NCBI GenBank assembly: GCA_963698975.1
Contig: CAVOSV010000003.1
Span: 517,864 to 581,863 of the forward strand
Length of the DNA stretch: 64,000 nucleotides
Source: an uncultured Gemmatimonadales bacterium
GTDB taxonomy: Bacteria > Gemmatimonadota > Gemmatimonadetes > Gemmatimonadales > GWC2-71-9
Direction: 5' to 3'
The notes under the pieces are model-generated. The model saw only the letters and a list, made by a program, of their open reading frames with translations. It was not told the origin of the DNA and did no database searches. The stretch's first letter is position 1. Each line of letters opens with the position of its first letter. Shown piece after piece: positions 22,755 to 49,023 of this stretch. A program made the position numbers and the translations under genes.

Positions 22755-22774
22755 CTGTCAGAACTGCCAGTTTC
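22755..22774 (+). promoter_or_regulatory. 20-nt motif copy 2 (CTGTCAGAACTGCCAGTTTC)
   Basis: 94 nt upstream of the start at 22869. Confidence 0.65.
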
Positions 22775-25767: not shown

Positions 25768-26853
25768 ATGAGTACGGGTAAAGCGGCAAGGACCTACAAC
25801 CAGGATCATGTGCCTCGCAAGTACAAGTCCGGCAAGCGTCGGGTGAGCATCTACTGGACCTGGAGCTATCCCTGGGAAGCGAACCGGGACCCGTCCGTGA
25901 TGGACAACCGCTTTTCGACCTTCACCGAGGTTCGGCGGGTGGCCTGGCCGGAGTATGAAACCCGGGAATGGAACGAGCAGGCCTTCCTTCAGGGCATTGC
26001 GGGCACACTGGAGCTGTTTCATCGCTCAACGCTGAGCTTTCAGCAGTTGGTGGGCGAGGCCACCGACCAGCCCGTCGCCGTCTTCCAGCGGATCGACCAG
26101 GCAGGGTATCGGCAGCCGATCGACGAGCGGATCCTGGCGGATACAGACACGCTGATGGTCTTCGGGCTCGACCACCTGCTGGCTGAGCAGGAGGCTTCGC
26201 CGGAAGAGATCGCGGCCCTCAGCGAGTGGCTCAAGCGCGAGGGAACCTGTCTCCTGATCGGCCCCCACCACGATGTGGGCTTTGCCGCGGACCTGGAGCA
26301 GCGGCAGATGGAGTACAAACATCACGGGGATCCCCTGGTGCCTCGGCAGCAGCGGTTCGGCCAGTACACCAGATCTTTGATGAAGGGGCTGGATGTTCCG
26401 GTGATAAATCAGTACGGACTCCGCCCGGCCGTGGTGAGAGGCACCAACCAGATTGCGCCGCTCCACACCAATCACGACCTCGACACCCTGGGTCTCCTGC
26501 GCAATGTCACCACCTTCAACTTTCATCCCCACCTGCCCCATTACGCCCTTACGACTGGCGACACCTCGTCGGTGCGGGTCCTCTCTTGCCAGGGGATCGA
26601 CCTGGATCGGCCGCACCCCTTTACTGCGGCGGGCAACACCGAATTCAACTGCTTCATCTGGATACCACCTCAGTCCGACCGAGGCGGAGATATCCTGATG
26701 GCCGACTCGACCATCTTCACTACGCTATTCGGTGGCACCCAAAGTCTGGAGAATTTCTGGCGCAACCTCGCGCTGATGAGACGAACTGAGCGAGCCACAC
26801 CAGCCCCCAGCCTGTCACAACTACCAGTTCCCGAGCGCACCTCGCGACTCTAG
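25768..26853 (+). CDS. hypothetical cytoplasmic protein, 361 aa, no family recognised
   Basis: Long ORF with good GC3 bias and no signal peptide. His-rich segments LLIGPHHDVGF, EYKHHGDP and NFHPHLPHY. Confidence 0.6.
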   Translation: MSTGKAARTYNQDHVPRKYKSGKRRVSIYWTWSYPWEANRDPSVMDNRFSTFTEVRRVAWPEYETREWNEQAFLQGIAGTLELFHRSTLSFQQLVGEATDQPVAVFQRIDQAGYRQPIDERILADTDTLMVFGLDHLLAEQEASPEEIAALSEWLKREGTCLLIGPHHDVGFAADLEQRQMEYKHHGDPLVPRQQRFGQYTRSLMKGLDVPVINQYGLRPAVVRGTNQIAPLHTNHDLDTLGLLRNVTTFNFHPHLPHYALTTGDTSSVRVLSCQGIDLDRPHPFTAAGNTEFNCFIWIPPQSDRGGDILMADSTIFTTLFGGTQSLENFWRNLALMRRTERATPAPSLSQLPVPERTSRL

Positions 26854-26975: not shown

Positions 26976-29348
26976 ATGAGTTCACCGGACACCATCCAAC
27001 GGTCGATTCTTCCGATCCCTGACGCGCAGCACGGGAGACTGACCACCTACGACGCGAAGGATCCGGACACGAAGTTCCCGCCGATCGAGACGCTGCTCCC
27101 GCCCAAGGCCGCGCCGAACGTGCTGGTGATTCTCATCGATGACGTCGGCTACGGAGCCACCAGCGCGTTCGGGGGGTCGTGCCGGACACCCAATTTCGAG
27201 AAGCTCGCGGAGGGCGGACTGCGATACACCCGTTTCCACACGACGGCGCTGTGCTCGCCCACCCGTCAAGCGCTCCTGACCGGCCGCAACCATCACTCCG
27301 TCGGCATGGGGGGCGTCACCGAGATCGCTACCGGCGCTCCGGGCTACAACTCGGTCTTGCCGAACACCAAGGCACCCCTGCCCTTAACCTTGAAACTGAA
27401 CGGATATTCGACGGCGCAATTCGGCAAGTGCCATGAGGTCCCGGTGTGGCAGACCAGTGCGGCAGGACCGTTCAATGCGTGGCCGACCGGCGGCGGCGGG
27501 TTCGAATACTTCTACGGCTTCATCGGCGGCGAGAACAACCAGTGGGACCCGGCCCTGTACGAGGGCACGACTGCAATCGAGCCGCCAAAGACCCCTGCCG
27601 AAGGCTACCACCTGACCGAAGACCTGACGGACAAGGCGATCGGCTGGATTCGGCAGCAGAAGGCGTTGCTGGGCGACAAGCCGTTCTTCATTTATTTCGC
27701 TCCCGGTGCCACCCACGCACCGCACCATGTCCCCAAGGAGTGGATCGAGAAGTACAGGGGCAAGTTCTCCCACGGCTGGGACCAAGAGCGCGAGATCACC
27801 TTCAAGCGGCAGAAGGAGTTGGGCGTCATCGCGGCTGACTCGGTGCTCACCGCTCGGCATCAGGAGATCCCCGCCTGGGAGGACATGGATCCCAAGCTCA
27901 AGCCGGTGCTCGAGCGGGAGATGGAGGTGTACGCTGCGTTCATGGAACACACCGACTATCACGTTGGCCGCCTGATCGATTCGCTTCGCGATCTGGAGAT
28001 CCTGGACGACACACTGATCTATCTGATCCTGGGCGACAACGGCGCGTCTGCGGAGGGCACTCTGCAGGGCTCCTTCAACGAGATGGCGAATTTCAACGGA
28101 CTGCCTGAGCTGGAAACACCCGAGTTCCTGATGTCCAAGCTGAAGGACTTCGGCGGCGAAGAATCCTACGGGCACTATGCGGTGGGCTGGGCCTGGGCGA
28201 TGGATACACCATATCAGTGGGCCAAACAGGTGGCCTCGCACTGGGGCGGTACCCGCAACGGCACCGTCGTGCACTGGCCCCGTGGCATCAAGGACAAGGG
28301 TGCCACGCGCAACCAGTTCAGCCACGTCATCGACGTTGCGCCCACCGTGCTCGAGGCGGCGGGACTTGCCGAGCCTACTATGGTCAACGGCGTGTTGCAG
28401 AGCCCGTATGAGGGCACCAGCATGGTCTACAGCTTCACCGACGCCAATGCCGCCGAGCGACACGAGACGCAGTACTTCGAGATGTTCTGCAACCGGGGCA
28501 TTTACCACAAGGGCTGGAGCGCGGTGACCAAGCACCGCACACCGTGGGAGAGTGGCGGGAAGTTGCCTGCCTTCGACGACGATGTCTGGGAGCTCTACGA
28601 CGGCAGCAAGGACTGGACTCAGGCCAACGACTTGTCCAAGAGTATGCCGGAAAAGTTACACGAGCTGCAGCGGCTGTGGCTGATCGAGGCGGTGAAGTAC
28701 AACGTGTTGCCGCTCGATGACCGGCAGATCGAGCGCCTCAATTCCGATCTGGCGGGCCGGCCCGTACTGGTGAAAGGCAATTCGCAGCTCCTGTTCCCCG
28801 GGATGGGGCGCCTGTCCGAGAACAGTGTGCTCAACATCAAGAACAAGTCCTTCGCCGTCACGTCAGAGCTGGAGGTGCCGGCCGAGGGCGCCGAGGGTGT
28901 GATCATCGCGCAGGGTGGTCGCTTCGGGGGCTGGGCCCTCTACGCCAAGGGAGGTAGGGCCAAGTTTGTGTACAACCTCCTCGGCATCAAATCGTACGTC
29001 GTTGAAGCCACCACGCCCATCCCTGCCGGCAAGATCCAAGTACGCATGGAATTCGCCTATGACGGCGGTGGCATGGGCAGGGGCGGAACGGTGACCCTGT
29101 ACTCCGGTGGCAAGGAAGTGGGCCACGGCCGGGTCGAGCAGACCCAGGGCTTCATCTTCTCGGCCGACGAGACCACCGACATCGGCTACGAGTCGGGCAC
29201 CACGGTCAGCCCCGACTACACCGCGCACGGCAGCCGCTTCAACGGGAAGATCAAGTGGGTGCAGATCGATCTGGCCGACGACTCCAAGGACGCCGACCAC
29301 TACATCAGCCACGACGAACGCCTGCGCGTGGCAATGGCACTGCAATAA
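26976..29348 (+). CDS. arylsulfatase (formylglycine-dependent sulfatase family, ~790-aa AtsA-like type)
   Basis: Sulfatase signature ALCSPTRQALLTGRNHHSVGMG (C-x-P-x-R). N-terminal metal-site region LVILIDDVGYG. No signal peptide. Confidence 0.9.
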   Translation: MSSPDTIQRSILPIPDAQHGRLTTYDAKDPDTKFPPIETLLPPKAAPNVLVILIDDVGYGATSAFGGSCRTPNFEKLAEGGLRYTRFHTTALCSPTRQALLTGRNHHSVGMGGVTEIATGAPGYNSVLPNTKAPLPLTLKLNGYSTAQFGKCHEVPVWQTSAAGPFNAWPTGGGGFEYFYGFIGGENNQWDPALYEGTTAIEPPKTPAEGYHLTEDLTDKAIGWIRQQKALLGDKPFFIYFAPGATHAPHHVPKEWIEKYRGKFSHGWDQEREITFKRQKELGVIAADSVLTARHQEIPAWEDMDPKLKPVLEREMEVYAAFMEHTDYHVGRLIDSLRDLEILDDTLIYLILGDNGASAEGTLQGSFNEMANFNGLPELETPEFLMSKLKDFGGEESYGHYAVGWAWAMDTPYQWAKQVASHWGGTRNGTVVHWPRGIKDKGATRNQFSHVIDVAPTVLEAAGLAEPTMVNGVLQSPYEGTSMVYSFTDANAAERHETQYFEMFCNRGIYHKGWSAVTKHRTPWESGGKLPAFDDDVWELYDGSKDWTQANDLSKSMPEKLHELQRLWLIEAVKYNVLPLDDRQIERLNSDLAGRPVLVKGNSQLLFPGMGRLSENSVLNIKNKSFAVTSELEVPAEGAEGVIIAQGGRFGGWALYAKGGRAKFVYNLLGIKSYVVEATTPIPAGKIQVRMEFAYDGGGMGRGGTVTLYSGGKEVGHGRVEQTQGFIFSADETTDIGYESGTTVSPDYTAHGSRFNGKIKWVQIDLADDSKDADHYISHDERLRVAMALQ

Positions 29349-29393
29349 GGCGCGTCGCGCTGGCTCGGCAGTCAGCGCCCCGAGGAGGACGAC

Positions 29394-30656
29394 ATGAGCG
29401 TTCCGTCCGACCGCGTGGCCGTGCACGACCATATGAACGTGAACGATCGTGTCGGTAACGTGGGCCAAGGCAGCGCACCGGAGCCGGCCCCTCTGACCGA
29501 GTTCTCCCTGGTGCTGGGCGGGCCGCTCTATCAACTCTGGCGGCGGACCCGTCTGAGCGGAGAGGCGCTGCAGCTGATGCGCCGCCGGATCGTCGTTCTG
29601 ACGGTCCTGGCTTGGGTGCCGTTGCTGGTTCTCTCCGCCCTTCAAGGGCACGCCTGGGGAGGCGTGAAGCTGCCCTTCCTCTACGACATAGAGCTACACG
29701 CCCGCCTGCTGCTGGCCATGCCGCTGTTGATTCTGGCGGAGCTCGCCGTTCACCGACGACTTCGTGGCACGGTGGAGCAGTTCATCGAACGGGACCTGAT
29801 CCCCGATGCGAATCGTGCGGCATTCGACGCGGCCATTTCATCGGCGAGGCGGCTGCGCAACTCGGTCTGGGTGGAGGCGCTGCTCCTCGTCCTGGTCTAC
29901 GTCGTCGGGGTTGGATTCCTCTGGCGCAGACAGATGGCCCTTCCGGTACCCAGCTGGCACGGGGCAATCGTCGATGGGATATGGCGGCCATCACTCGCCG
30001 GCTGGTGGCTGGGCCTGGTGAGCCTGCCGTTGTTTCAGTTCCTGCTGCTGCGCTGGTACTTCCGGCTGTTCATCTGGGCCCGATTCCTCTGGCACATGTC
30101 GCGGATCCAGCTGAACATCATAGCAACCCACCCGGATAGCGCCGGCGGCCTGGGCTTCCTCGCGTCCGTTGGTCGCACGTTCGCGCTGCTGCTTCTGGCC
30201 CAGGGGATAATGCTGGCCGGGCTCATGGCCAACCGGATCTTCTACGCTGGCGCGACGCTGCCCCAGTTCAAGGTGGAGCTGGTTGGGCTGGTGACCGCGA
30301 TGGTATTCGCCGTGCTGGGGCCCCTGTTGGTGTTCACTCGGCAGCTCGAAGCCGCCAAGCGGGCGGGCTCTCGCAGATACGGCGTGCTGGCCCAGCGCTA
30401 CATGAGCGAGTTCGACCGCAAGTGGGTGCGGGGGCAGCCTCGCTCGGATGAGGCGCTGCTCGGGAACGCCGATATCCAGTCCCTGGCTGATATGGGAAAC
30501 AGCTTCGACGTCGTGAAGGGCATGCGCTGGACTCCCTTTACTTTCTCCACGGTGGTGCAGTTGGCGCTGACCACCCTCCTCCCGGTGCTGCCGCTGGGGT
30601 TGACGATGTTCTCGGCCGAGGAGTTTCTCGACCGCCTGCTCAAGGTTGTATTCTAG
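29394..30656 (+). CDS. hypothetical polytopic membrane protein, 420 aa
   Basis: Several TM helices (IVVLTVLAWVPLLVLSAL, LLLAMPLLILAEL, ALLLVLVYVVGVGFLW, WWLGLVSLPLFQFLLL...). No family recognised. Confidence 0.6.
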   Translation: MSVPSDRVAVHDHMNVNDRVGNVGQGSAPEPAPLTEFSLVLGGPLYQLWRRTRLSGEALQLMRRRIVVLTVLAWVPLLVLSALQGHAWGGVKLPFLYDIELHARLLLAMPLLILAELAVHRRLRGTVEQFIERDLIPDANRAAFDAAISSARRLRNSVWVEALLLVLVYVVGVGFLWRRQMALPVPSWHGAIVDGIWRPSLAGWWLGLVSLPLFQFLLLRWYFRLFIWARFLWHMSRIQLNIIATHPDSAGGLGFLASVGRTFALLLLAQGIMLAGLMANRIFYAGATLPQFKVELVGLVTAMVFAVLGPLLVFTRQLEAAKRAGSRRYGVLAQRYMSEFDRKWVRGQPRSDEALLGNADIQSLADMGNSFDVVKGMRWTPFTFSTVVQLALTTLLPVLPLGLTMFSAEEFLDRLLKVVF

Positions 30657-31789
30657 CCCGCCTTCTAGTACTCGCCCTGATCACCGCCTCCTGCGGGACG
30701 GCGTCGGCCCAGGGAGTTGAAACCTCAGACATCCCGTCGATCGAGCCGGCACCCGGAACGGTCGAAAGCAGTGCCGAAAAAGGATCAGGGGTCACGCCCC
30801 TGGTGGCACCGCTGCCGTTTAAGAACTCGCAGATCGGCTGGGGCGTGGCCCTGATGCTGGGTCTGATTCACCGGCTCGATGCCGATACCACGGTCAAGCC
30901 TTCCACCGGGGCAATCGTGGGTCTTGCCAGTGAGAACGGCAGCTGGGGCGTCATGGCGATGGAGATGGCCCGCCTCGGTAAGGACACCTGGCGTGCCCGC
31001 GGCGTGGCCGGCTACATGGACCTGGAGTACGACTTCTACGGGATCGGCATCGACGCCGGGGAAGCCGGCCAATCGGTGCCCATCGACCAGACCTTTTTCG
31101 TGGCCTCGGGTGCGCTCCTTCGGCACGTGGTGAGCGGTCTTTACGTCGGAGGCCAGATCCTGTGGTTGACCACCACCGTCACCCCGCAGGATTCGGTGGG
31201 CCCGAACCAGCCCGTGCTGCCCGACCAGGCTCACTCGGAGCTCCTGGCGGGCGGCCTTCAGGCGGAGTTCGATACCCGGGACGACGACTACTGGCCTCAG
31301 CGCGGGTCGTTGGCCCAGCTCAAAGGAAACTTTTTCACTACGACCACCGGAGAGTCGGGCTCATTTCAACGCTACCAGGCGGCCTGGTCGTGGTATCACG
31401 GATTTCGGGGCCCGCGGCTGGTACTCGCAACCAATCTCCTGGCCTGCGGAGCACCGGGAGACGCCCCATTCTACGGGTTATGCTCGCTCGGCACGGGCCG
31501 GTTCTCGGTTCGGGGGTACACGCAGGGCCGATACCGGGACCACTACACCACTGCGGTTCAGGCGGAGCTGCGCGGCCACACTTCGGGGCGCCTGGGCGCC
31601 GTGCTCTTCGGGGGCTTTGCGCAGGTGGCCCCGGAATTGTCCGAGATTCTCAAGTCGGAGCTGCTTCCAGCCGGCGGCGTGGGTCTTCGCTTCCAACTGG
31701 CCCGGAAGTATCCGATGCACCTGCGGCTGGATTACGCCTGGGGACGGGACGGAGGGCTGCTGTACTTCTCGGTGGGAGAGGCCATCTAG
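30650..31789 (+). CDS. Omp85/BamA-family beta-barrel protein without POTRA domains (start uncertain: ATT at 30650 or GTG at 30803)
   Basis: C-terminal GGVGLRFQLARKYPMHLRLDYAWGRDGGLLYFSVGEAI. The same frame is open upstream and encodes (I)LARLLVLALITASCGTASAQ, a lipoprotein-type signal peptide with no ATG/GTG/TTG. Confidence 0.6.
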   Translation: MLARLLVLALITASCGTASAQGVETSDIPSIEPAPGTVESSAEKGSGVTPLVAPLPFKNSQIGWGVALMLGLIHRLDADTTVKPSTGAIVGLASENGSWGVMAMEMARLGKDTWRARGVAGYMDLEYDFYGIGIDAGEAGQSVPIDQTFFVASGALLRHVVSGLYVGGQILWLTTTVTPQDSVGPNQPVLPDQAHSELLAGGLQAEFDTRDDDYWPQRGSLAQLKGNFFTTTTGESGSFQRYQAAWSWYHGFRGPRLVLATNLLACGAPGDAPFYGLCSLGTGRFSVRGYTQGRYRDHYTTAVQAELRGHTSGRLGAVLFGGFAQVAPELSEILKSELLPAGGVGLRFQLARKYPMHLRLDYAWGRDGGLLYFSVGEAI

Positions 31790-31835
31790 GCCAAACGGGG
31801 CCTTACATCCTAAAAACGGAACCTGACATCGGCTT

Positions 31836-32177
31836 TCATTGGCCCGCGTGGCGGTGCCGCAGCTCCGCCATGTCGCGATCGAGGAAGTAATTAAGGAATG
31901 TTCGAATCACCGCGACCGCACCGAGCCGGGCCACCGCCTCCCAGTGATGAGTTATGGAGGTCTCGAGGATGTCGGCGCCGAGCTGGAAGGTGAGTGCCGC
32001 CACCAGCCACCGGGCGTAGCCGAGCCACACATCGCGGCGCTCCGGCCGAGGCCCTCCCGCCAGGAGCAGCCGGACCACGGCGACGATTGCCTCCACCGAT
32101 CCCGCCAGGACCATCACTAGCGCGAGGCCGTTGAGGAAGGCGACGGAGATCTCGGTCACATGAATCAGCCAGTTCAT
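31836..32177 (-). CDS. DUF1622 domain-containing membrane protein
   Basis: 113 aa. MNWLIHVTEISVAFLNGLALVMVLAGSVEA...FQLGADILETSI matches my recollection of DUF1622. Confidence 0.65.
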   Translation of the reverse strand: MNWLIHVTEISVAFLNGLALVMVLAGSVEAIVAVVRLLLAGGPRPERRDVWLGYARWLVAALTFQLGADILETSITHHWEAVARLGAVAVIRTFLNYFLDRDMAELRHRHAGQ

Positions 32178-32209
32178 CAGCTTGACGATCCGGAATGGCG
32201 GCGCAGACT

Positions 32210-32229
32210 GAAACTGTCAGTTGTGACAG
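32210..32229 (-). promoter_or_regulatory. 20-nt motif copy 3 (CTGTCACAACTGACAGTTTC)
   Basis: 32 nt upstream of the ATG at 32177. Identical 20-mer at 49004-49023. Outer end of the left arm of the cassette. Confidence 0.7.
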
Positions 32230-32290
32230 GCGGTAGGTGAAGCAGCGGGAGGTACTGCAGCGGTAGGACGGTAGATGGAGCGGCGGTAGT
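32230..32290. repeat. left inverted arm of the four-helix-bundle cassette (CGGTAG-containing ~15-nt units)
   Basis: Its reverse complement aligns with 32731-32780: a 33-nt block CTGCAGTACCTCCC.C.GCTTCACCTACCGC with 2 mismatches. Confidence 0.8.
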
Positions 32291-32302
32291 CCGCCCGTAC
32301 TG

Positions 32303-32668
32303 TCAGGGTGACTGTGTTTCCATAACAGACTTGTAAAGCCGCCATAGCAACTGGCCGGCTTGATTCCGAAGTCCATCCAATTCTTGAAAGACCTGTGGCT
32401 GGAGAATTCCCCGGTCCCGGCTGAATCGAAGCAGATACGAGACTTCGAACAACGATCCCAGTGCGATGTCGAGGTATCGCCGAAGCTCTCGCGGCCCTCG
32501 CTTGGCAGATCCTTCAGCAATGTTGGCGGGGACGGAAAGTGCAGCGCGACGAACTTGAGCGGTGAGACCGAATCTTTCGGCAGATGGCCAGTGCTCAGTC
32601 CTGGTATAAACCTCCAAGGCAAGTTGGTGGGCTGCTCTCCAGCAATGGAGCCTTTCGTAGGGGACCAT
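32303..32668 (-). CDS. four-helix-bundle protein (TIGR02436 / '23S rRNA intervening sequence protein' family)
   Basis: YERLHCWRAAHQLALEVYTRT...RFGLTAQVRRAALSVPANIAEGSAKRGPRELRRYLDIALGSLFEVSYLL. Start taken at MVPYERL. Confidence 0.8.
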   Translation of the reverse strand: MVPYERLHCWRAAHQLALEVYTRTEHWPSAERFGLTAQVRRAALSVPANIAEGSAKRGPRELRRYLDIALGSLFEVSYLLRFSRDRGILQPQVFQELDGLRNQAGQLLWRLYKSVMETQSP

Positions 32669-32715
32669 CCCACAGTCTGACAGAAAATTTTTCGCTTGTA
32701 TAACCATCCTCGCGC

Positions 32716-32858
32716 CGTCCCTACCGTCCTCCCGCCGCCTCATCTACCGCTGCAGTACCTCCCACCGCTTCACCTACCGCCGCAGTACCTACCGCTACCG
32801 CCACCGCCATACCTACCGCTGCAACATCTACCGCTGCGGTTTCTCGCTCTACCGCCTC
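32716..32858. repeat. right inverted arm: tandem ~15-nt units CTACCGCYGCARYAY (CTACCG occurs 8 times)
   Basis: CTACCGCTGCAGTAC / CTACCGCCGCAGTAC / CTACCGCTGCAACAT / CTACCGCTGCGGTTT and others. About 76 nt longer than the left arm. Confidence 0.8.
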
Positions 32859-32878
32859 CTGTCACAACAGACAGTTTC
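32859..32878 (+). promoter_or_regulatory. 20-nt motif copy 4 (CTGTCACAACAGACAGTTTC)
   Basis: 31 nt upstream of the ATG at 32910. Outer end of the right arm. Confidence 0.7.
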
Positions 32879-32909
32879 CGCCCACAGCCAAACGTCGCAA
32901 GCTGCTACC

Positions 32910-33776
32910 ATGTGGCGCTTCCTTGTCCTCACGGCCGGCCTCGCCCCATTGCTCGCCTCAACTGCCTCCGCCCAGGAGTTGGACCCCCGTTTGTATCCGA
33001 AATGGGAGATCGACGCCTCGGCTACGCTCCTCCTGTTAGGGGAAACCATCCGGGTGGATCCGCTGAACCAGCCGGGAGAGGGCACCGAATTCGATGCCGA
33101 AGATGTGCTCGGGGTGTCCGGCACCAGCTTCCAACCCCGGGCCGCGCTGCGCTGGAGACCAGGCAAGCGGCACGAGCTGGAGCTGGGCTATCTCCGCGCC
33201 GTGCGGTCGGCCGACAAGGTGCTGCGCGATACCCTCGTTGTTGCCGATACCACCTTCGACGCTGGTCTGAGGCTCAACTCGAACCTGAGGACCAGCCAGG
33301 CATTCCTCACGTATCGCTATAGCTTCCGCGCCCGACCCGAGAGCCAGATCGGCGCCGCCGTGGGTTTGGGAGCCATCTTCCTGAAGAGCGAGCTCGACGC
33401 GACGGCCGCCACCACCCAGGGGGCCTCTGACACAGCCATCGTCGAGCGATCGAAGACCAGCAGCTTTACCGCCCCGACTCTATCACTCGGCCTTTACGGG
33501 CGGTGGAAGCTGGGCGAGAAGTGGTACCTGGAATCGGATGCCCGGGGGGTCTACTTCAAGGTCGAGAACTTCAAGGCGGGCGTAGCCGAGCTGGGACTGG
33601 CTGGACGTCGTTTCTTTAGCGAAAAGTTTGCCGGTGAGCTGGGGTATAATCTCGGGTTCTACACCGTTACCCTGGAGAAGGGTAGCGCGGACAATGCCTT
33701 CCTCAACATCGACGTGGCGGGAAAGATCAAGTACACGGTGAATGGTTTCCACGGAGGGATCGTTTTTATCTTCTGA
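32910..33776 (+). CDS. outer-membrane beta-barrel protein (hypothetical)
   Basis: Signal peptide MWRFLVLTAGLAPLLASTASAQE. Alternating strands; C-terminal GGIVFIF. Confidence 0.7.
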   Translation: MWRFLVLTAGLAPLLASTASAQELDPRLYPKWEIDASATLLLLGETIRVDPLNQPGEGTEFDAEDVLGVSGTSFQPRAALRWRPGKRHELELGYLRAVRSADKVLRDTLVVADTTFDAGLRLNSNLRTSQAFLTYRYSFRARPESQIGAAVGLGAIFLKSELDATAATTQGASDTAIVERSKTSSFTAPTLSLGLYGRWKLGEKWYLESDARGVYFKVENFKAGVAELGLAGRRFFSEKFAGELGYNLGFYTVTLEKGSADNAFLNIDVAGKIKYTVNGFHGGIVFIF

Positions 33777-33779
33777 CTT

Positions 33780-34322
33780 TTATTTCACGCTATACCCCTT
33801 CCCTTCCAGGCACGCGCTCATCCCCTTCTTGAACGCCTCGATCTTCCCGGCTGCCTCTCCCTGGGCACCGGCCACCGCCTGTTGCTCCGCCTGCTTGCCG
33901 GCCTGCTTCTTGGCTCGCCGGCCCTTGACGGCTCCCGCCGCCGCCCCGATCGCGGCACCCGTGCCGGCGTCACCCGCGATGCCGCCGACGATGGCCCCGC
34001 CAGCAGCGCCGCCGGCCGCACCTTTGACTGCCGCACCGTGCGTTGCGGTATCGGCTGCCGCTTTTCCTGCCGCCGCCGCAGAGTCAGCGTTGACGGTCAC
34101 CGTCGCGGGATCGATACCGGTTTGTTCCTTTGACCAATCGTAGCAGGCCTTCTCGTCCTGCGACTGCTGCTCCTTGGTCTGGTCCTTGGCCGGAAACACG
34201 ACCAGTCCCAGCTGGCCCGAAAGTGAAGCCGGCGCGGGGGCCGCAGTCTGGGCCCCCGCCCGCGGGAGGTCTATCCCCAAGGCCCACACCAGCAGCAGTG
34301 TGGCACAGCAAATCTTTGTCAT
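33780..34322 (-). CDS. glycine-zipper family secreted/membrane protein
   Basis: Signal peptide and Gly/Ala zipper GAAGGAAGGAIVGGIAGDAGTGAAIGAAAGAV. Confidence 0.65.
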   Translation of the reverse strand: MTKICCATLLLVWALGIDLPRAGAQTAAPAPASLSGQLGLVVFPAKDQTKEQQSQDEKACYDWSKEQTGIDPATVTVNADSAAAAGKAAADTATHGAAVKGAAGGAAGGAIVGGIAGDAGTGAAIGAAAGAVKGRRAKKQAGKQAEQQAVAGAQGEAAGKIEAFKKGMSACLEGKGYSVK

Positions 34323-34349
34323 GGTGCCTTCTTGAAAACGATCCCCGAC

Positions 34350-35030
34350 CTAGAAGGCGAACACCAGGCCGCCGGTCCACTGGCCCTGGTTCACCCATGC
34401 CGTCCCTTCACCCGCGACGCAGGCATAGAATCCGCACCAGACGCCGTAGTCACCCGAGGGCACCGGTGTCACCCAGAGCTTGATGTCGCTCCGGATGCCA
34501 ATCCGCTGGCTGGAGAACATGTACTTGGCCCCACCGCCGACGCTCCAGGAGAAGCGGGTACTGGAACCGACTCCGTCCGCCTTGGGATCGAGCACGTTGA
34601 TGCCGAGCGAGCCGGTGATAAACGGCCGCAGCTTTTCCGAGTGTCCGAACTCCTGCCGCCCGCCGATCTGGACGTAATTGAACGCGAAGCCGCCGGGCAG
34701 AGGGACGTTCGTTCCTCCGGTGGCTGGATCAAATTCGATGTCGCTGTCCTGCCGGGAGTAGAGCAGCTCGACGGCAGATCCCATGTGGGCCAGGAAGCTG
34801 ACGACCAGACCCCAGGAGAACGAGTCCGGGACCCGGAGCTCGCCCGCTCCCAGCACGCCACCTGCGTCGGTCTGGAATGCGCCGCCAAAGGACCAGGCCG
34901 CAAAGGGCGTGAGCTCGAAGCGGCTGTGGTGCACCTCCTGCAATTGAGCTGCTGCCGGGGCCGCGGTGAGCCACAGCGCTGCAGCGCCAATGACGAGGGG
35001 GAGGATACGGCATCTCATGGTGTGCCTCAC
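34350..35030 (-). CDS. outer-membrane beta-barrel protein (OMP_b-brl/OmpW-like)
   Basis: Signal peptide ...AAPAAAQ. C-terminal GGLVFAF. Confidence 0.7.
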   Translation of the reverse strand: MRHTMRCRILPLVIGAAALWLTAAPAAAQLQEVHHSRFELTPFAAWSFGGAFQTDAGGVLGAGELRVPDSFSWGLVVSFLAHMGSAVELLYSRQDSDIEFDPATGGTNVPLPGGFAFNYVQIGGRQEFGHSEKLRPFITGSLGINVLDPKADGVGSSTRFSWSVGGGAKYMFSSQRIGIRSDIKLWVTPVPSGDYGVWCGFYACVAGEGTAWVNQGQWTGGLVFAF

Positions 35031-35111
35031 TGGGTTCGTAAATGGATGCTTGGCACAGCTCGGCTCAGCCGCCGGGCCGACGGTACAGGGTACGATGTTC
35101 CTGGTGCTCGG

Positions 35112-35131
35112 GTAACTGTTAGTTCTTACAG
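35112..35131 (-). promoter_or_regulatory. 20-nt motif copy 5 (CTGTAAGAACTAACAGTTAC)
   Basis: 81 nt upstream of the start at 35030. 19/20 identical to copy 6, with similarity continuing about 15 nt further. Confidence 0.65.
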
Positions 35132-35144
35132 GACGGCTCCGGCC

Positions 35145-36288
35145 TTACCACCCTACGGTGTACTGCGCGCCCAGTGTGTAGTCTACCTGATCGGCATGCA
35201 GTTCGCCGCCGGGATAGGCGGCAGACCAGGTGCCCCGCCGGTTCACCATTCTGAGCCGGAGCGCAAGATTGGACACGACTTCCCAGGCGAGGGTCAACCG
35301 CTCGAGTTGTTCCGTGCCCCGCGGGGCCAGCGATTGGTCGCCAAAGGCCACCATGCGATCCAGTGTGACCGTGAGAGGAATCCGGACGTCGGTGAGCCCT
35401 CCGTTGAAGGAAAGGAAGTTGGTCAGCTCCTGCATGACGCCTCTGCCGTTGCCGTAAACACCGATCTGCGTACTGACGGTCAGGCCCTTGAGCATGATGG
35501 CGGGGCCAATGCTCGCCCTATAGGCGGTCCCGCTGCTCAGGGCGGCGTTTCCGGCAGTGGGCTGCCAGTCGGCATGGATGCTGCCGAGATGCACCGCCAG
35601 CCCGTATCCCATGCCTCCGGAGCTCCGCTTGATCTCCCGGGAGAGGTCGAGCGAGGCCGACCGGGCCCCCGATGCGAACGAGCCCTCCAGGCGAGCACTC
35701 AAACCCGCCATGGCCAGCTCCGCCTGCAGATTGACCTGCGGAGGCGCTCTGGGCGCCCCGCTGAGTCGGGCTTTGGTTGGAGATCCGGACCGCTCGCCGG
35801 CTGAAGTTCGTGCTCCAGCCGCCGGTGACAGCGACCGAGCGCCGGTTTCGTTCCGGCAGCGCGATCGAGAGCTCGTGGTAATAGGATTGGCAGGAGTGCC
35901 GGCGGCAGACCTCAACCTTGAGTGGCTTCTTCACGACATTGAAGAGTCGGCCCTCATGGCGCGTGGCATACCGCATCACCGGCACGCTGTCGCCGAAGTC
36001 CGGCTGCAGCGAGGCCTGGAGCATTGAGCCGCCGGACGAGTACCGGTCCAGCCCGTTGGCGGAGCTGACCACGATACTGTCGGCCGACGGACTGGTAACA
36101 CTCAGCTGGATCGGCGCATCCGCTCGGCTCACCGCAGGATTCAGGTGCAGCCGGACGGGAGCGGGCCCATCCGCGAGATCGATGGTGGTTGCTGGCGGGG
36201 GGCTACAGGCCCGGAGTGCCAGCGAGCCCGACTGCGGCCCGAGCCACAGCAACGTCCACCGGAGCGTCCTGCAGAGTGCTGCTGGCAA
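35145..36288 (-). pseudogene. lipoprotein/beta-barrel gene with an apparent 1-nt frame break (or assembly error)
   Basis: ORF 35518..36288 has a lipoprotein signal (LALRAC) and plausible sequence to ...VAVTGGWSTNFS, then junk. ORF 35145..35915 is junk first, then plausible beta-barrel sequence from ...PQVNLQAELAMAGLSARLEG to the C-terminal YTVGW. Total length 1144 nt = 3n+1. Confidence 0.55.
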
Positions 36289-36883
36289 AGACCTTCTCTT
36301 TCTTCATCTGGCTGACGGTGGCGTCGACGATGTCATTGACCAGCGTCCGCACCGATTCCGGATTGTAGGTCTTGGTGTGGCTGGCCCAGACCAGTTTCCC
36401 CTGGGTCAGGGAATAGACGTTCGCCTCCACACTCACCACCTGATCCTGCTGGACGTAACCGGGAGAGTAGGCGTAACCCCATCCGGTGCCCCAGTAACCC
36501 CACATCGAGCCATACGCCGACGGTACCACATAGGAACTACCCGGGACGTAGGTGGTCTCCTTGTCGACCGCTACCGGACGCATCACCACAGCCCCGTCGA
36601 AGTTTTGGGCAACGACCAGAGCCTTGGCCCTTTCCTGGTCCCGCAGCGCCTCATCCGGAATAACCGTGTAGGCCGCTACCCCATTCCCCAGTTTCTTGGC
36701 CAGCTCGTCCTCCGCCGCGCGGCGAATACCCACGTCCTTGCTGATGAAAACGGCAAGGACCTTCTTGAACTTTTGCGGCTGCATCGTCGGCTCTTTCCAG
36801 GAGTTCACCACCTCGGTGTTCGGCGCGCAGGCGCCGAGCAGGAGGCTGAGCGCGAGAGCAGAGTGACTTCGGGTGATTCGCAT
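36203..36883 (-). CDS. lipoprotein, hypothetical
   Basis: Lipobox LLLGAC. Aromatic/Gly-rich segment SMWGYWGTGWGYAYSPGY. Confidence 0.65.
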   Translation of the reverse strand: MRITRSHSALALSLLLGACAPNTEVVNSWKEPTMQPQKFKKVLAVFISKDVGIRRAAEDELAKKLGNGVAAYTVIPDEALRDQERAKALVVAQNFDGAVVMRPVAVDKETTYVPGSSYVVPSAYGSMWGYWGTGWGYAYSPGYVQQDQVVSVEANVYSLTQGKLVWASHTKTYNPESVRTLVNDIVDATVSQMKKEKVFASSTLQDAPVDVAVARAAVGLAGTPGL

Positions 36884-36959: not shown

Positions 36960-36979
36960 GAAACTGTTAGTTCTTACAG
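36960..36979 (-). promoter_or_regulatory. 20-nt motif copy 6 (CTGTAAGAACTAACAGTTTC)
   Basis: 76 nt upstream of the start at 36883. Confidence 0.7.
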
Positions 36980-37003: not shown

Positions 37004-37023
37004 CTGGTAGAACTGACAGTTTC
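37004..37023 (+). promoter_or_regulatory. 20-nt motif copy 7 (CTGGTAGAACTGACAGTTTC)
   Basis: 55 nt upstream of the ATG at 37079. Inverted partner of copy 6, 24 nt away. Confidence 0.7.
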
Positions 37024-49003: not shown

Positions 49004-49023
49004 GAAACTGTCAGTTGTGACAG
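49004..49023 (-). promoter_or_regulatory. 20-nt motif copy 9 (CTGTCACAACTGACAGTTTC)
   Basis: 56 nt upstream of the ATG at 48947, in the divergent region shared with the FixJ-type regulator gene. Exact 20-mer identity to copy 3. Confidence 0.7.

Follow-up and report, generated by a model that had tools for sequence, protein, structure and literature searches.

The 64,000-nucleotide stretch of an uncultured Gemmatimonadales bacterium analysed here (contig CAVOSV010000003.1; the whole stretch is called the window below) carries, between a DUF1622 gene and an outer-membrane protein (OMP) gene, a cassette in which a small four-helix-bundle gene is enclosed by inverted, tandemly repetitive arms (Table 1). 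The initial annotation had assigned this gene to the "23S rRNA intervening sequence (IVS) protein" family and had described the unit as an IVS-like, or alternatively a miniature inverted-repeat transposable element (MITE)-like, insertion. It is a well-supported conclusion of the present analysis that the cassette is a free-standing counterpart of the IVSs of 23S rRNA that bear an open reading frame (ORF), with a PF05635 gene between complementary arms, and the architecture that recurs across this family is more interesting than the single locus.

The two arms pair best over 38 nt (32229-32266 with 32744-32781; 95% complementary) and over 24 nt (32210-32233 with 32855-32878; 92% complementary), which bears out the inverted arms that had been described around the gene. 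As had also been noted, they are built of units of about 15 nt, for which Tandem Repeats Finder (TRF) gives periods of 15 and 30 in the right arm. The unit core CTACCG occurs eight times in the right arm, as counted before, and four times in the left, where three had been counted; the longer string CTACCGCYGC is confined to the arms and has no other occurrence in the window. The arm upstream of the gene is the longer one, and about 76 nt of it (32782-32854) have no exact partner in the other. Each arm ends in a copy of a 20-nt motif that faces outward, again as described, and the 4-nt spacer of the right copy (CAAC) is inverted relative to that of the left copy (GTTG). When the region 32200-32890 was folded as RNA, the gene-sense strand gave -319.1 kcal/mol against -261.9 +/- 4.5 for shuffled sequences (z = -12.7) and the other strand gave -283 kcal/mol (z = -6.2), and on both strands the predicted stem, which the annotation had expected, consists of the arms and the motifs. 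No rRNA, tRNA or other Rfam family was detected anywhere in the window, in keeping with the earlier remark that rRNA is absent. A CRISPR array was rejected as an identity for the arms, as such an array needs unique spacers of similar length and the units here lie head to tail with no spacers between them. A 208-aa ORF at 32696-33322 on the plus strand, which encodes LPPxxLP-like repeats and overlaps the OMP gene out of frame, is an artefact of the translated tandem-repeat arm.

The 121-aa cassette protein scores 104.4 bits against PF05635 (cut-off 33.8) and 99.1 bits against TIGR02436 (cut-off 24), so the family assignment made from the sequence alone holds. The published family motif is GxxRxxxSxxxNxxE (PMC3936711); the cassette protein contains RxxxSxxxNxxEG (...QVRRAALSVPANIAEG...), with the leading G not at the published spacing. 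The sole solved relative found by sequence is Xcc0516 (PDB 2GSC; E 2.8e-20 over residues 3-87), whose structure is a four-helix-bundle pentamer. The cassette protein is basic (isoelectric point, pI, 9.9) and has 1451 relatives at E <= 1e-10, nearly all from Gemmatimonadales and at most 81% identical. Its homologues are nearly all 121 aa long and begin with MxPYER; the longer reading frame of 146 aa, with its start at 32743, probably runs too far into the arm. Compared with the copy in a related genome (L086), the gene has a dN/dS of 0.39, a value based on only 13 differences, which suggests some constraint.

Table 1. Positions of the cassette, its neighbours, the host motif and three plasmid-borne cassettes (window coordinates unless a locus is named).
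Feature	Position	Strand	Remarks
DUF1622 gene	31836-32177	minus	left neighbour of cassette
Left copy of 20-nt host motif (CTGTCACAACTGACAGTTTC on minus strand)	32210-32229	minus	directed at DUF1622; outermost part of inverted repeat
Gene-downstream arm (gene sense)	32230-32290	minus	pyrimidine-rich on minus strand (G-rich on plus); 4 CTACCG cores in units of ~15 nt
Four-helix-bundle gene, 121 aa	32303-32668	minus	PF05635/TIGR02436
Spacer of 52 nt, upstream arm to ATG	32669-32720	minus	presumed family-wide site of sigma-70-like promoter
Gene-upstream arm (gene sense)	32721-32858	minus	G/purine-rich on minus strand (C-rich on plus); 8 CTACCG on plus strand
Right copy of 20-nt host motif (CTGTCACAACAGACAGTTTC)	32859-32878	plus	directed at OMP gene
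OMP gene	32910-33776	plus	right neighbour of cassette
All motif sites	22755-22774(+), 26812-26831(+), 32210-32229(-), 32859-32878(+), 36960-36979(-), 37004-37023(+), 49004-49023(-)		
Cyanobacterial plasmid cassettes	L107 751-1178; L106 586-1265; L093 1442-1860		cmr2/cmr3, cas6/cas4, other co-oriented genes

ORF-bearing IVSs of 23S rRNA, such as those of Leptospira and of Coxiella burnetii (S23p), hold a protein of the same family in their loop. The Coxiella IVS measures 428-444 nt, has a 28-bp terminal stem around the S23p ORF and is cut by RNase III, and a mobile-element origin of IVSs was proposed by Ralph and McClelland (PMC4990558). The cassette, at 629-669 bp, compares with a range of 428-759 nt for rRNA IVSs and shares with them a sporadic distribution and the suspicion of a mobile past (PMC4990558); its complementary termini (38 + 24 nt, against 28 bp in Coxiella) form a predicted stable stem around the ORF, as is characteristic of an IVS. 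Unlike an rRNA IVS, it does not interrupt a 23S or 16S rRNA helix but occupies the space between the divergent promoters of two protein genes; its arms consist of tandem repeats, and the gene family appears to have a promoter of its own.

Arms of the same kind surround other members of the family, which supports the description of the unit as IVS-like. Eighty-five loci with relatives of the gene were collected, 68 of which had enough flank for an arm test, in which the best alignment of the 300 nt upstream with the reverse complement of the 300 nt downstream was scored and compared with 457 control placements. The score exceeded the 99th percentile of the controls in 60 of these 68 Gemmatimonadales loci, with a median of 52.5 as against a control median of 20 and a control maximum of 37. 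The upstream arm contains more G than C in 60/60 loci, with a median purine fraction of 0.74; because a purine-5'...pyrimidine-3' arrangement reads alike on both strands, this polarity is a property of the arm pair and not of gene orientation. The commonest unit length is 8 nt, and the unit sequence varies by locus (for example, GGCGGTAA, GGCGGTAC, GGCGGTCA, GACGGAAG and GGAATGAT); the 15-nt unit of the window is shared by L001 and L008, and paralogues in one genome bear different units. Perfect tandem 8-mers on both sides occur at 28 loci, with 20 distinct units among them. At 26 of these 28 the unit on the downstream side equals the reverse complement of the upstream one with at most one mismatch; over 2000 trials with permuted pairings, the number of such loci averaged 7.1 and never exceeded 13. 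It is thus well supported that the conserved property of the arms is their mutual match, not their sequence, and that the unit has turned over many times in both arms jointly. At some loci, such as L017, the arms are complementary yet non-periodic, which speaks for pairing, more than for a series of binding sites, as what is conserved, and at L007, L041 and L058 the non-repeat outer parts of the arms pair as well.

Changes in the arms can be followed at short range. Two loci with an identical protein in the same context (L004, 2880-2950, and L005, 2872-2950) differ in the upstream arm by one 8-nt unit, so that slippage alters arm length even over short times. Such behaviour might suggest that the arms are functionless by-products, that is, slippage-prone simple repeats homogenised by gene conversion between inverted copies, an idea with which the fast change in arm length and unit number, the recombination that does occur between arms and the absence of a wobble signature (see below) agree. 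However, the layout and polarity recur in 60/68 loci and across phyla despite complete unit turnover, and the control placements never attain these arm scores, so that we find this idea hardly credible.

A more serious competitor takes the arms to be arrays of binding sites for the encoded oligomer, mirror-oriented, with one array just upstream of the promoter and one downstream, serving autoregulation, DNA looping or roadblocking. Arrays that track the specificity of the protein would explain why the unit changes jointly in both arms, and the short units, with a dominant period of 8 nt and mostly 3-14 copies per arm, are suggestive of an oligomer. The upstream arm often ends beside the -35-like box of the family promoter, copy numbers are unequal between arms (8 versus 4 in the window and 14 versus 3 in L045), which is needless for a stem, and the different units of paralogues in one genome, the basic character of the protein (pI 9.9) and the constant arm polarity would all fit. 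Against this, the arms of L017 and L030 are complementary yet non-repetitive, the outer non-repeat parts at L007, L041 and L058 are complementary too, a period of 8 bp sets successive sites on different faces of duplex DNA, and the distance from arm to promoter varies from ~40 to 160 nt. In addition, a nucleic-acid complex has been solved for a single family member, and its ligand is an RNA stem-loop, not duplex DNA (bioRxiv 10.1101/2023.10.23.563531). On balance, binding arrays are a doubtful account of the arms.

The architecture extends to other phyla. Ten further loci were taken from annotated plasmids, eight of them cyanobacterial (three from Nostoc and one each from Calothrix, Geminocystis, Picosynechococcus, Stanieria and Pseudanabaena) and the others from Azospirillum and Gemmatirosa, and nine of the ten have the same arm layout, with further units such as GGAGGGCA, CAGGAGT, AAAAGGG, AGGGTGT, AGGGAAC, AGGAGATA and others. 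The exception is Pseudanabaena (L106, 580-800), where the downstream array is direct and the complementary one is found at a greater distance upstream. All eight plasmid loci that were folded gave predicted end-to-end stems; over 11 cassettes, the strand preference of the predicted folds was inconsistent. In seven of the eight cyanobacterial loci the cassette sits within an array of co-oriented genes, in contexts (FHB denoting the four-helix-bundle gene) such as cmr2-FHB-cmr3, cas6-FHB-cas4, integrase-FHB and TraM-FHB, and the arms reach near to, or are flush with, the ends of the neighbouring genes, thereby filling the gaps. Genes of the PF05635 family have been reported inside cas operons (PMC3936711), and the family has been scored as linked to CRISPR arrays (PMC10910872), a score that operon-embedded cassettes may explain. 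For annotators, it follows that such cassettes can occur within operons, for example, between cmr2 and cmr3, and that their repeat arms can mimic small CRISPR arrays for repeat finders.

Some loci depart from the two-arm plan or have a recurrent context. At L054 (2868-2960) and at L092 from Gemmatirosa (1327-1423) there are three arms, namely, a gene-less hairpin of a G-arm and a C-arm, then the gene, and then a C-arm; the three-arm variants L054, L092 and L106 could be alternative pairings or remnants of a second cassette. In three Gemmatimonadales metagenome-assembled genomes (L007, L012 and L045), the cassette lies ~20-25 nt before the start of a short-chain dehydrogenase-like gene (LVTGAT.GIGR), and this shared context indicates that some cassettes are stably inherited. 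The dehydrogenase-like gene may depend on read-out from the cassette.

At the window locus itself, relatives differ in the presence and the orientation of the cassette. Orthologous DUF1622-OMP regions were obtained via homologues of the OMP gene, exact-sequence look-ups for DUF1622 and OMP having returned no record. Four contigs from four samples (L096, L097, L099 and L100) have DUF1622 and OMP 132 nt apart with no cassette, and they represent the lineage closest to the window (OMP, 85% nucleotide identity; glyzip, 90%). Their empty allele has a single perfect 24-nt palindrome, GAAACTGTCA-GTTG-TGACAGTTTC; in the filled allele the 16-nt core of this palindrome is present twice, in inverted orientation, to the left (spacer GTTG) and to the right (spacer CAAC) of the cassette. 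L086 carries the cassette in the opposite orientation with respect to OMP: the alignment of window 32210-32660 with L086 474-1 has 90% identity, and at the junction the window's left-inside sequence is joined to its right-outside sequence. Between the window and L086, synonymous divergence (dS) is 0.07 for the cassette gene (6/90 sites) and 0.23, 0.32, 0.68 and 0.80 for flanking genes, the difference being significant throughout (Fisher p 0.006 to 4e-12). The low dS, which marks the cassette as younger than its surroundings, the occurrence in either orientation and the absence from the nearest relatives together imply that the cassette moves or is exchanged as a unit. Therefore, that it is a discrete unit of gain, loss and inversion in this lineage, situated between outward-facing host motifs, is well supported, and the polymorphism falls at exactly the spacer for which the initial annotation had proposed a comparison of relatives. 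The findings named there as unfavourable (no stable stem; arms absent from other copies of the family and from the rest of the genome; relatives with an identical arrangement and no insertion/deletion polymorphism) were all looked into, and none was encountered.

Two parts of the earlier description have to be given up. The unit is not MITE-like, since it contains a gene and its arms have no second occurrence in the window, and the cassette did not bring the 20-nt motif, which stands upstream of at least seven window genes. Relatives without the cassette have the motif upstream of DUF1622 and OMP too, and it is absent from 85/85 loci with relatives of the cassette gene; it is therefore not part of the cassette but a host element. 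The further suggestion that the cassette split the motif is partly right: the empty allele has one 24-nt palindrome and the filled allele two inverted 16-nt core copies that flank the cassette. Two routes, simple insertion into the middle of the palindrome and integration of a circular form at the motif, were reasoned through and rejected, as neither reproduces the observed junctions. In a more distant relative (L091; OMP, 77%), a 203-aa gene lies between two inverted motif copies in the DUF1622/OMP spacer, from which the state with two motif copies may be old. This lipoprotein-like gene (L091, 2819-3430) is 64.5% identical to the window gene 36203-36883 on the minus strand, ~3.5 kb off, which has a divergent motif pair of its own, the neighbourhood having been reshuffled around motifs. 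Over window 29000-36000, dS against L086 ranges from 0.23 to 0.80 among adjacent genes, a spread that suggests frequent recombination in these populations.

The inverted copy raises the question of a switch, or inverton, in which flipping of promoter plus gene would redirect read-out to DUF1622 or to OMP. The two orientations in related genomes, the junctions, which are those expected for exchange between inverted repeats, and the identical arm polarity in both orientations speak for it. However, the orientations are seen only between genomes whose flanks differ by a dS of at least 0.23 and not within one population, the immediate neighbours include no detected recombinase, DUF1622 and OMP are each already provided with a promoter motif, and flipping would break the operons that hold the cyanobacterial cassettes, all of which makes a switch very unlikely.

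The same polymorphism bears on the view that the unit is a DNA transposon-like element with the arms as its terminal inverted repeats. Such an element would be mobilised in trans or with the help of its own protein and would target palindromic or hairpin sites, RNA pairing being incidental. Presence or absence, opposite orientation and low dS at one site are what such an element would produce, as are insertion at a palindromic motif and arms flush with neighbouring stop and start codons; in Arthrospira the genes are strain-specific (PMC8700078), and the old hypothesis of IVS transposition (PMC4990558) points the same way. The profile scan found no transposase or nuclease domain in the cassette or adjoining it, and this counts against transposon ends, as do the lack of a visible direct target-site duplication or of recent bursts and the uniqueness of the arms in the 64-kb window. 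Furthermore, the paralogues within a genome are ~50-70% identical and have different ends, which a single trans-acting enzyme could not all recognise. Transposon-type ends accordingly seem unlikely, less so than a switch.

The transcription of the gene matters for any role of the arms in RNA. A promoter position matrix was built over 59 loci: in 26 of 57 loci a TAnnnT box lies 4-9 nt ahead of the start codon, as against 1.9% of random positions, and the Gemmatimonadales family loci have a -35-like GGTTGA box at about -38 and no Shine-Dalgarno sequence that could be seen. These patterns suggest that the family gene probably has its own sigma-70-like promoter between the upstream arm and the ATG and yields a leaderless mRNA. 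The deduction comes solely from the family-wide matrix, which the window copy matches poorly (TTATAC-N18-CAGACT-N5-ATG, a degenerate form), and a scan of the window cassette for the strict sigma-70 consensus gave no match.

How the arms act is something we infer, the candidates being pairing in RNA or single strands, protein-binding arrays and transposon-type ends. Our preferred explanation, an IVS-like cassette that works by arm pairing, has in our estimate a probability of about 0.55 as a whole. The arms would pair whenever the segment is single-stranded, chiefly in RNA that reads across the element, and would loop the insertion out as a stem of 40-150 bp; by analogy with rRNA IVSs, this stem would be a substrate of RNase III, and its cutting would allow the element to be tolerated in rRNAs, operons and intergenic spacers alike. 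Tandem repeats would preserve pairing in many registers despite slippage. The basic protein, which may be pentameric and is a homologue of Avd, whose pentamer grips an RNA stem-loop (bioRxiv 10.1101/2023.10.23.563531), probably acts on the arm structure, and in Gemmatimonadales it is probably translated from a leaderless mRNA that starts at the gene's own promoter. Within double-stranded DNA the arms, as inverted repeats, would promote inversion and hairpin-mediated loss. Looping-out in RNA appears to fit the operon-embedded copies best.

Several observations weigh against this explanation. The constant purine-5'/pyrimidine-3' polarity is not accounted for by simple pairing, and the promoter would lie downstream of the 5' arm, so that the gene's own mRNA would lack that arm. 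At the window locus both neighbours are transcribed away from the cassette, and a transcript that spans both arms is therefore not expected there; the role in RNA may be idle at this locus, and of the transcript with the ORF in its loop that had been envisaged, the stem is indeed predicted and the transcript itself may not exist. Mismatches between arms are compatible with G-U wobble in the sense strand in 129 cases and in the antisense strand in 119 (p 0.57), a lack of bias by which nothing favours RNA over DNA as the level at which complementarity matters. As to mobility, ~40 nt on the OMP side are replaced between the empty and the filled alleles, leaving no clean insertion footprint; the only direct repeat at the filled-allele junctions is GACAG, the 16-nt core copies being inverted, and no direct target-site duplication was seen at the cassette. 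Neither near-identical copies of the cassette nor a transposase was found, and the low dS of the cassette could alternatively stem from exchange by homologous recombination.

The questions of what the "23S rRNA IVS protein" family does and where bacterial IVSs come from date back to 1993. The present data show that the stem-plus-ORF module also occurs outside rRNA, with arms that co-vary in nearly every member examined, and this co-variation, together with gain or loss, inversion and the youth of the cassette in one lineage, makes the old idea of a mobile element, served by its ORF, directly testable; the Gemmatirosa plasmid and the Nostoc punctiforme plasmid provide cultivable test cases. A bolder proposal, which we put forward tentatively and think possible rather than probable, is that PF05635 cassettes are pan-bacterial, tiny selfish elements, the IVSs of mRNAs and intergenic DNA as well as of rRNA, with self-complementary purine/pyrimidine arms of tandem repeats that are recognised, and perhaps generated or maintained, by the encoded pentamer, and that they home to palindromic or hairpin sites in either orientation. 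If true, it would account for the origin of the rRNA IVSs, for the recurring apparent link of PF05635 to CRISPR arrays and cas operons and for part of the inverted G-rich heptamer repeats that are so far unexplained in Xanthomonas and cyanobacteria. We found no description of repeat arms around free-standing PF05635 genes in the literature, in which subscription journals were covered only to a small extent and an earlier description is possible.

Other known systems share some of these features. A RAYT (REP-associated tyrosine transposase) gene is a single small gene bracketed by inverted repetitive extragenic palindromic (REP) sequences that can fold into a hairpin (REPIN-RAYT). RAYTs are HUH nucleases, and REPs are scattered genome-wide in hundreds of copies; unlike them, the cassette protein has no nuclease fold and its repeats are found only at the cassette within the 64-kb window. 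MITEs and integron cassettes, too, are small, self-contained units that are gained and lost between genes and whose ends are inverted or form hairpins. However, MITEs are geneless and occur in many copies, whereas the present unit has a 121-aa gene and is single-copy in the window in both arms and gene; an integron cassette carries just one attC hairpin, at one of its ends, and relies on an integrase, features that do not fit the present unit. The GGGAATC repeats of Xanthomonas and the GGGGAYT repeats of Nostoc resemble the arms as short (7-9-nt), G-rich, intergenic tandem repeats, and both hosts carry PF05635 genes; the Xanthomonas heptamers often form inverted pairs capable of stem-loops, but the work on the heptamers ties them to no gene (PMC4692102). 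In diversity-generating retroelements (DGRs), the Avd protein is a homologous basic four-helix-bundle protein that binds an RNA stem-loop as a pentamer, and the sequences that flank the template in the DGR RNA pair with each other (bioRxiv 10.1101/2023.10.23.563531). An identity of the cassette protein with DGR Avd was rejected (score with the NF033474 model, 20.1 bits; cut-off, 80); the ten neighbouring products scanned gave no Pfam or NCBIfam hit to a reverse transcriptase, and no template/variable repeat (TR/VR) pair was found among the cassette neighbours. One 420-aa product, encoded upstream of Omp85, gave no family match.

Finally, the host motif deserves comment in its own right. Its core is the palindromic CTGTCA-N4-TGACAG, followed by TTTC, and with up to 3 mismatches allowed it has seven sites in the window, where 0.00 are expected. 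Each site lies 24-145 nt upstream of a gene and is oriented toward that gene; the genes encode a 201-aa protein, a sulfatase-like protein, DUF1622, OMP, a DUF4136-like lipoprotein, a 168-aa protein and a response-regulator receiver protein. In several sites a CTCTAnnG-like box follows ~16 nt beyond the motif, a layout that looks like an operator overlapping the -35 region, and the motif is probably the operator/-35 region of one regulon. It presumably resembles the lux-box-type sites of LuxR/GerE-family regulators, a likeness that we offer as a lead only. Between one pair of divergent genes, the copies at 36960 and 37004 are separated by just 24 nt and point outward. In cassette-free relatives (L099, 492-515; also L096 and L100), a perfect 24-nt palindrome, GAAACTGTCAGTTGTGACAGTTTC, serves both divergent genes and is a compact bidirectional form of the motif.

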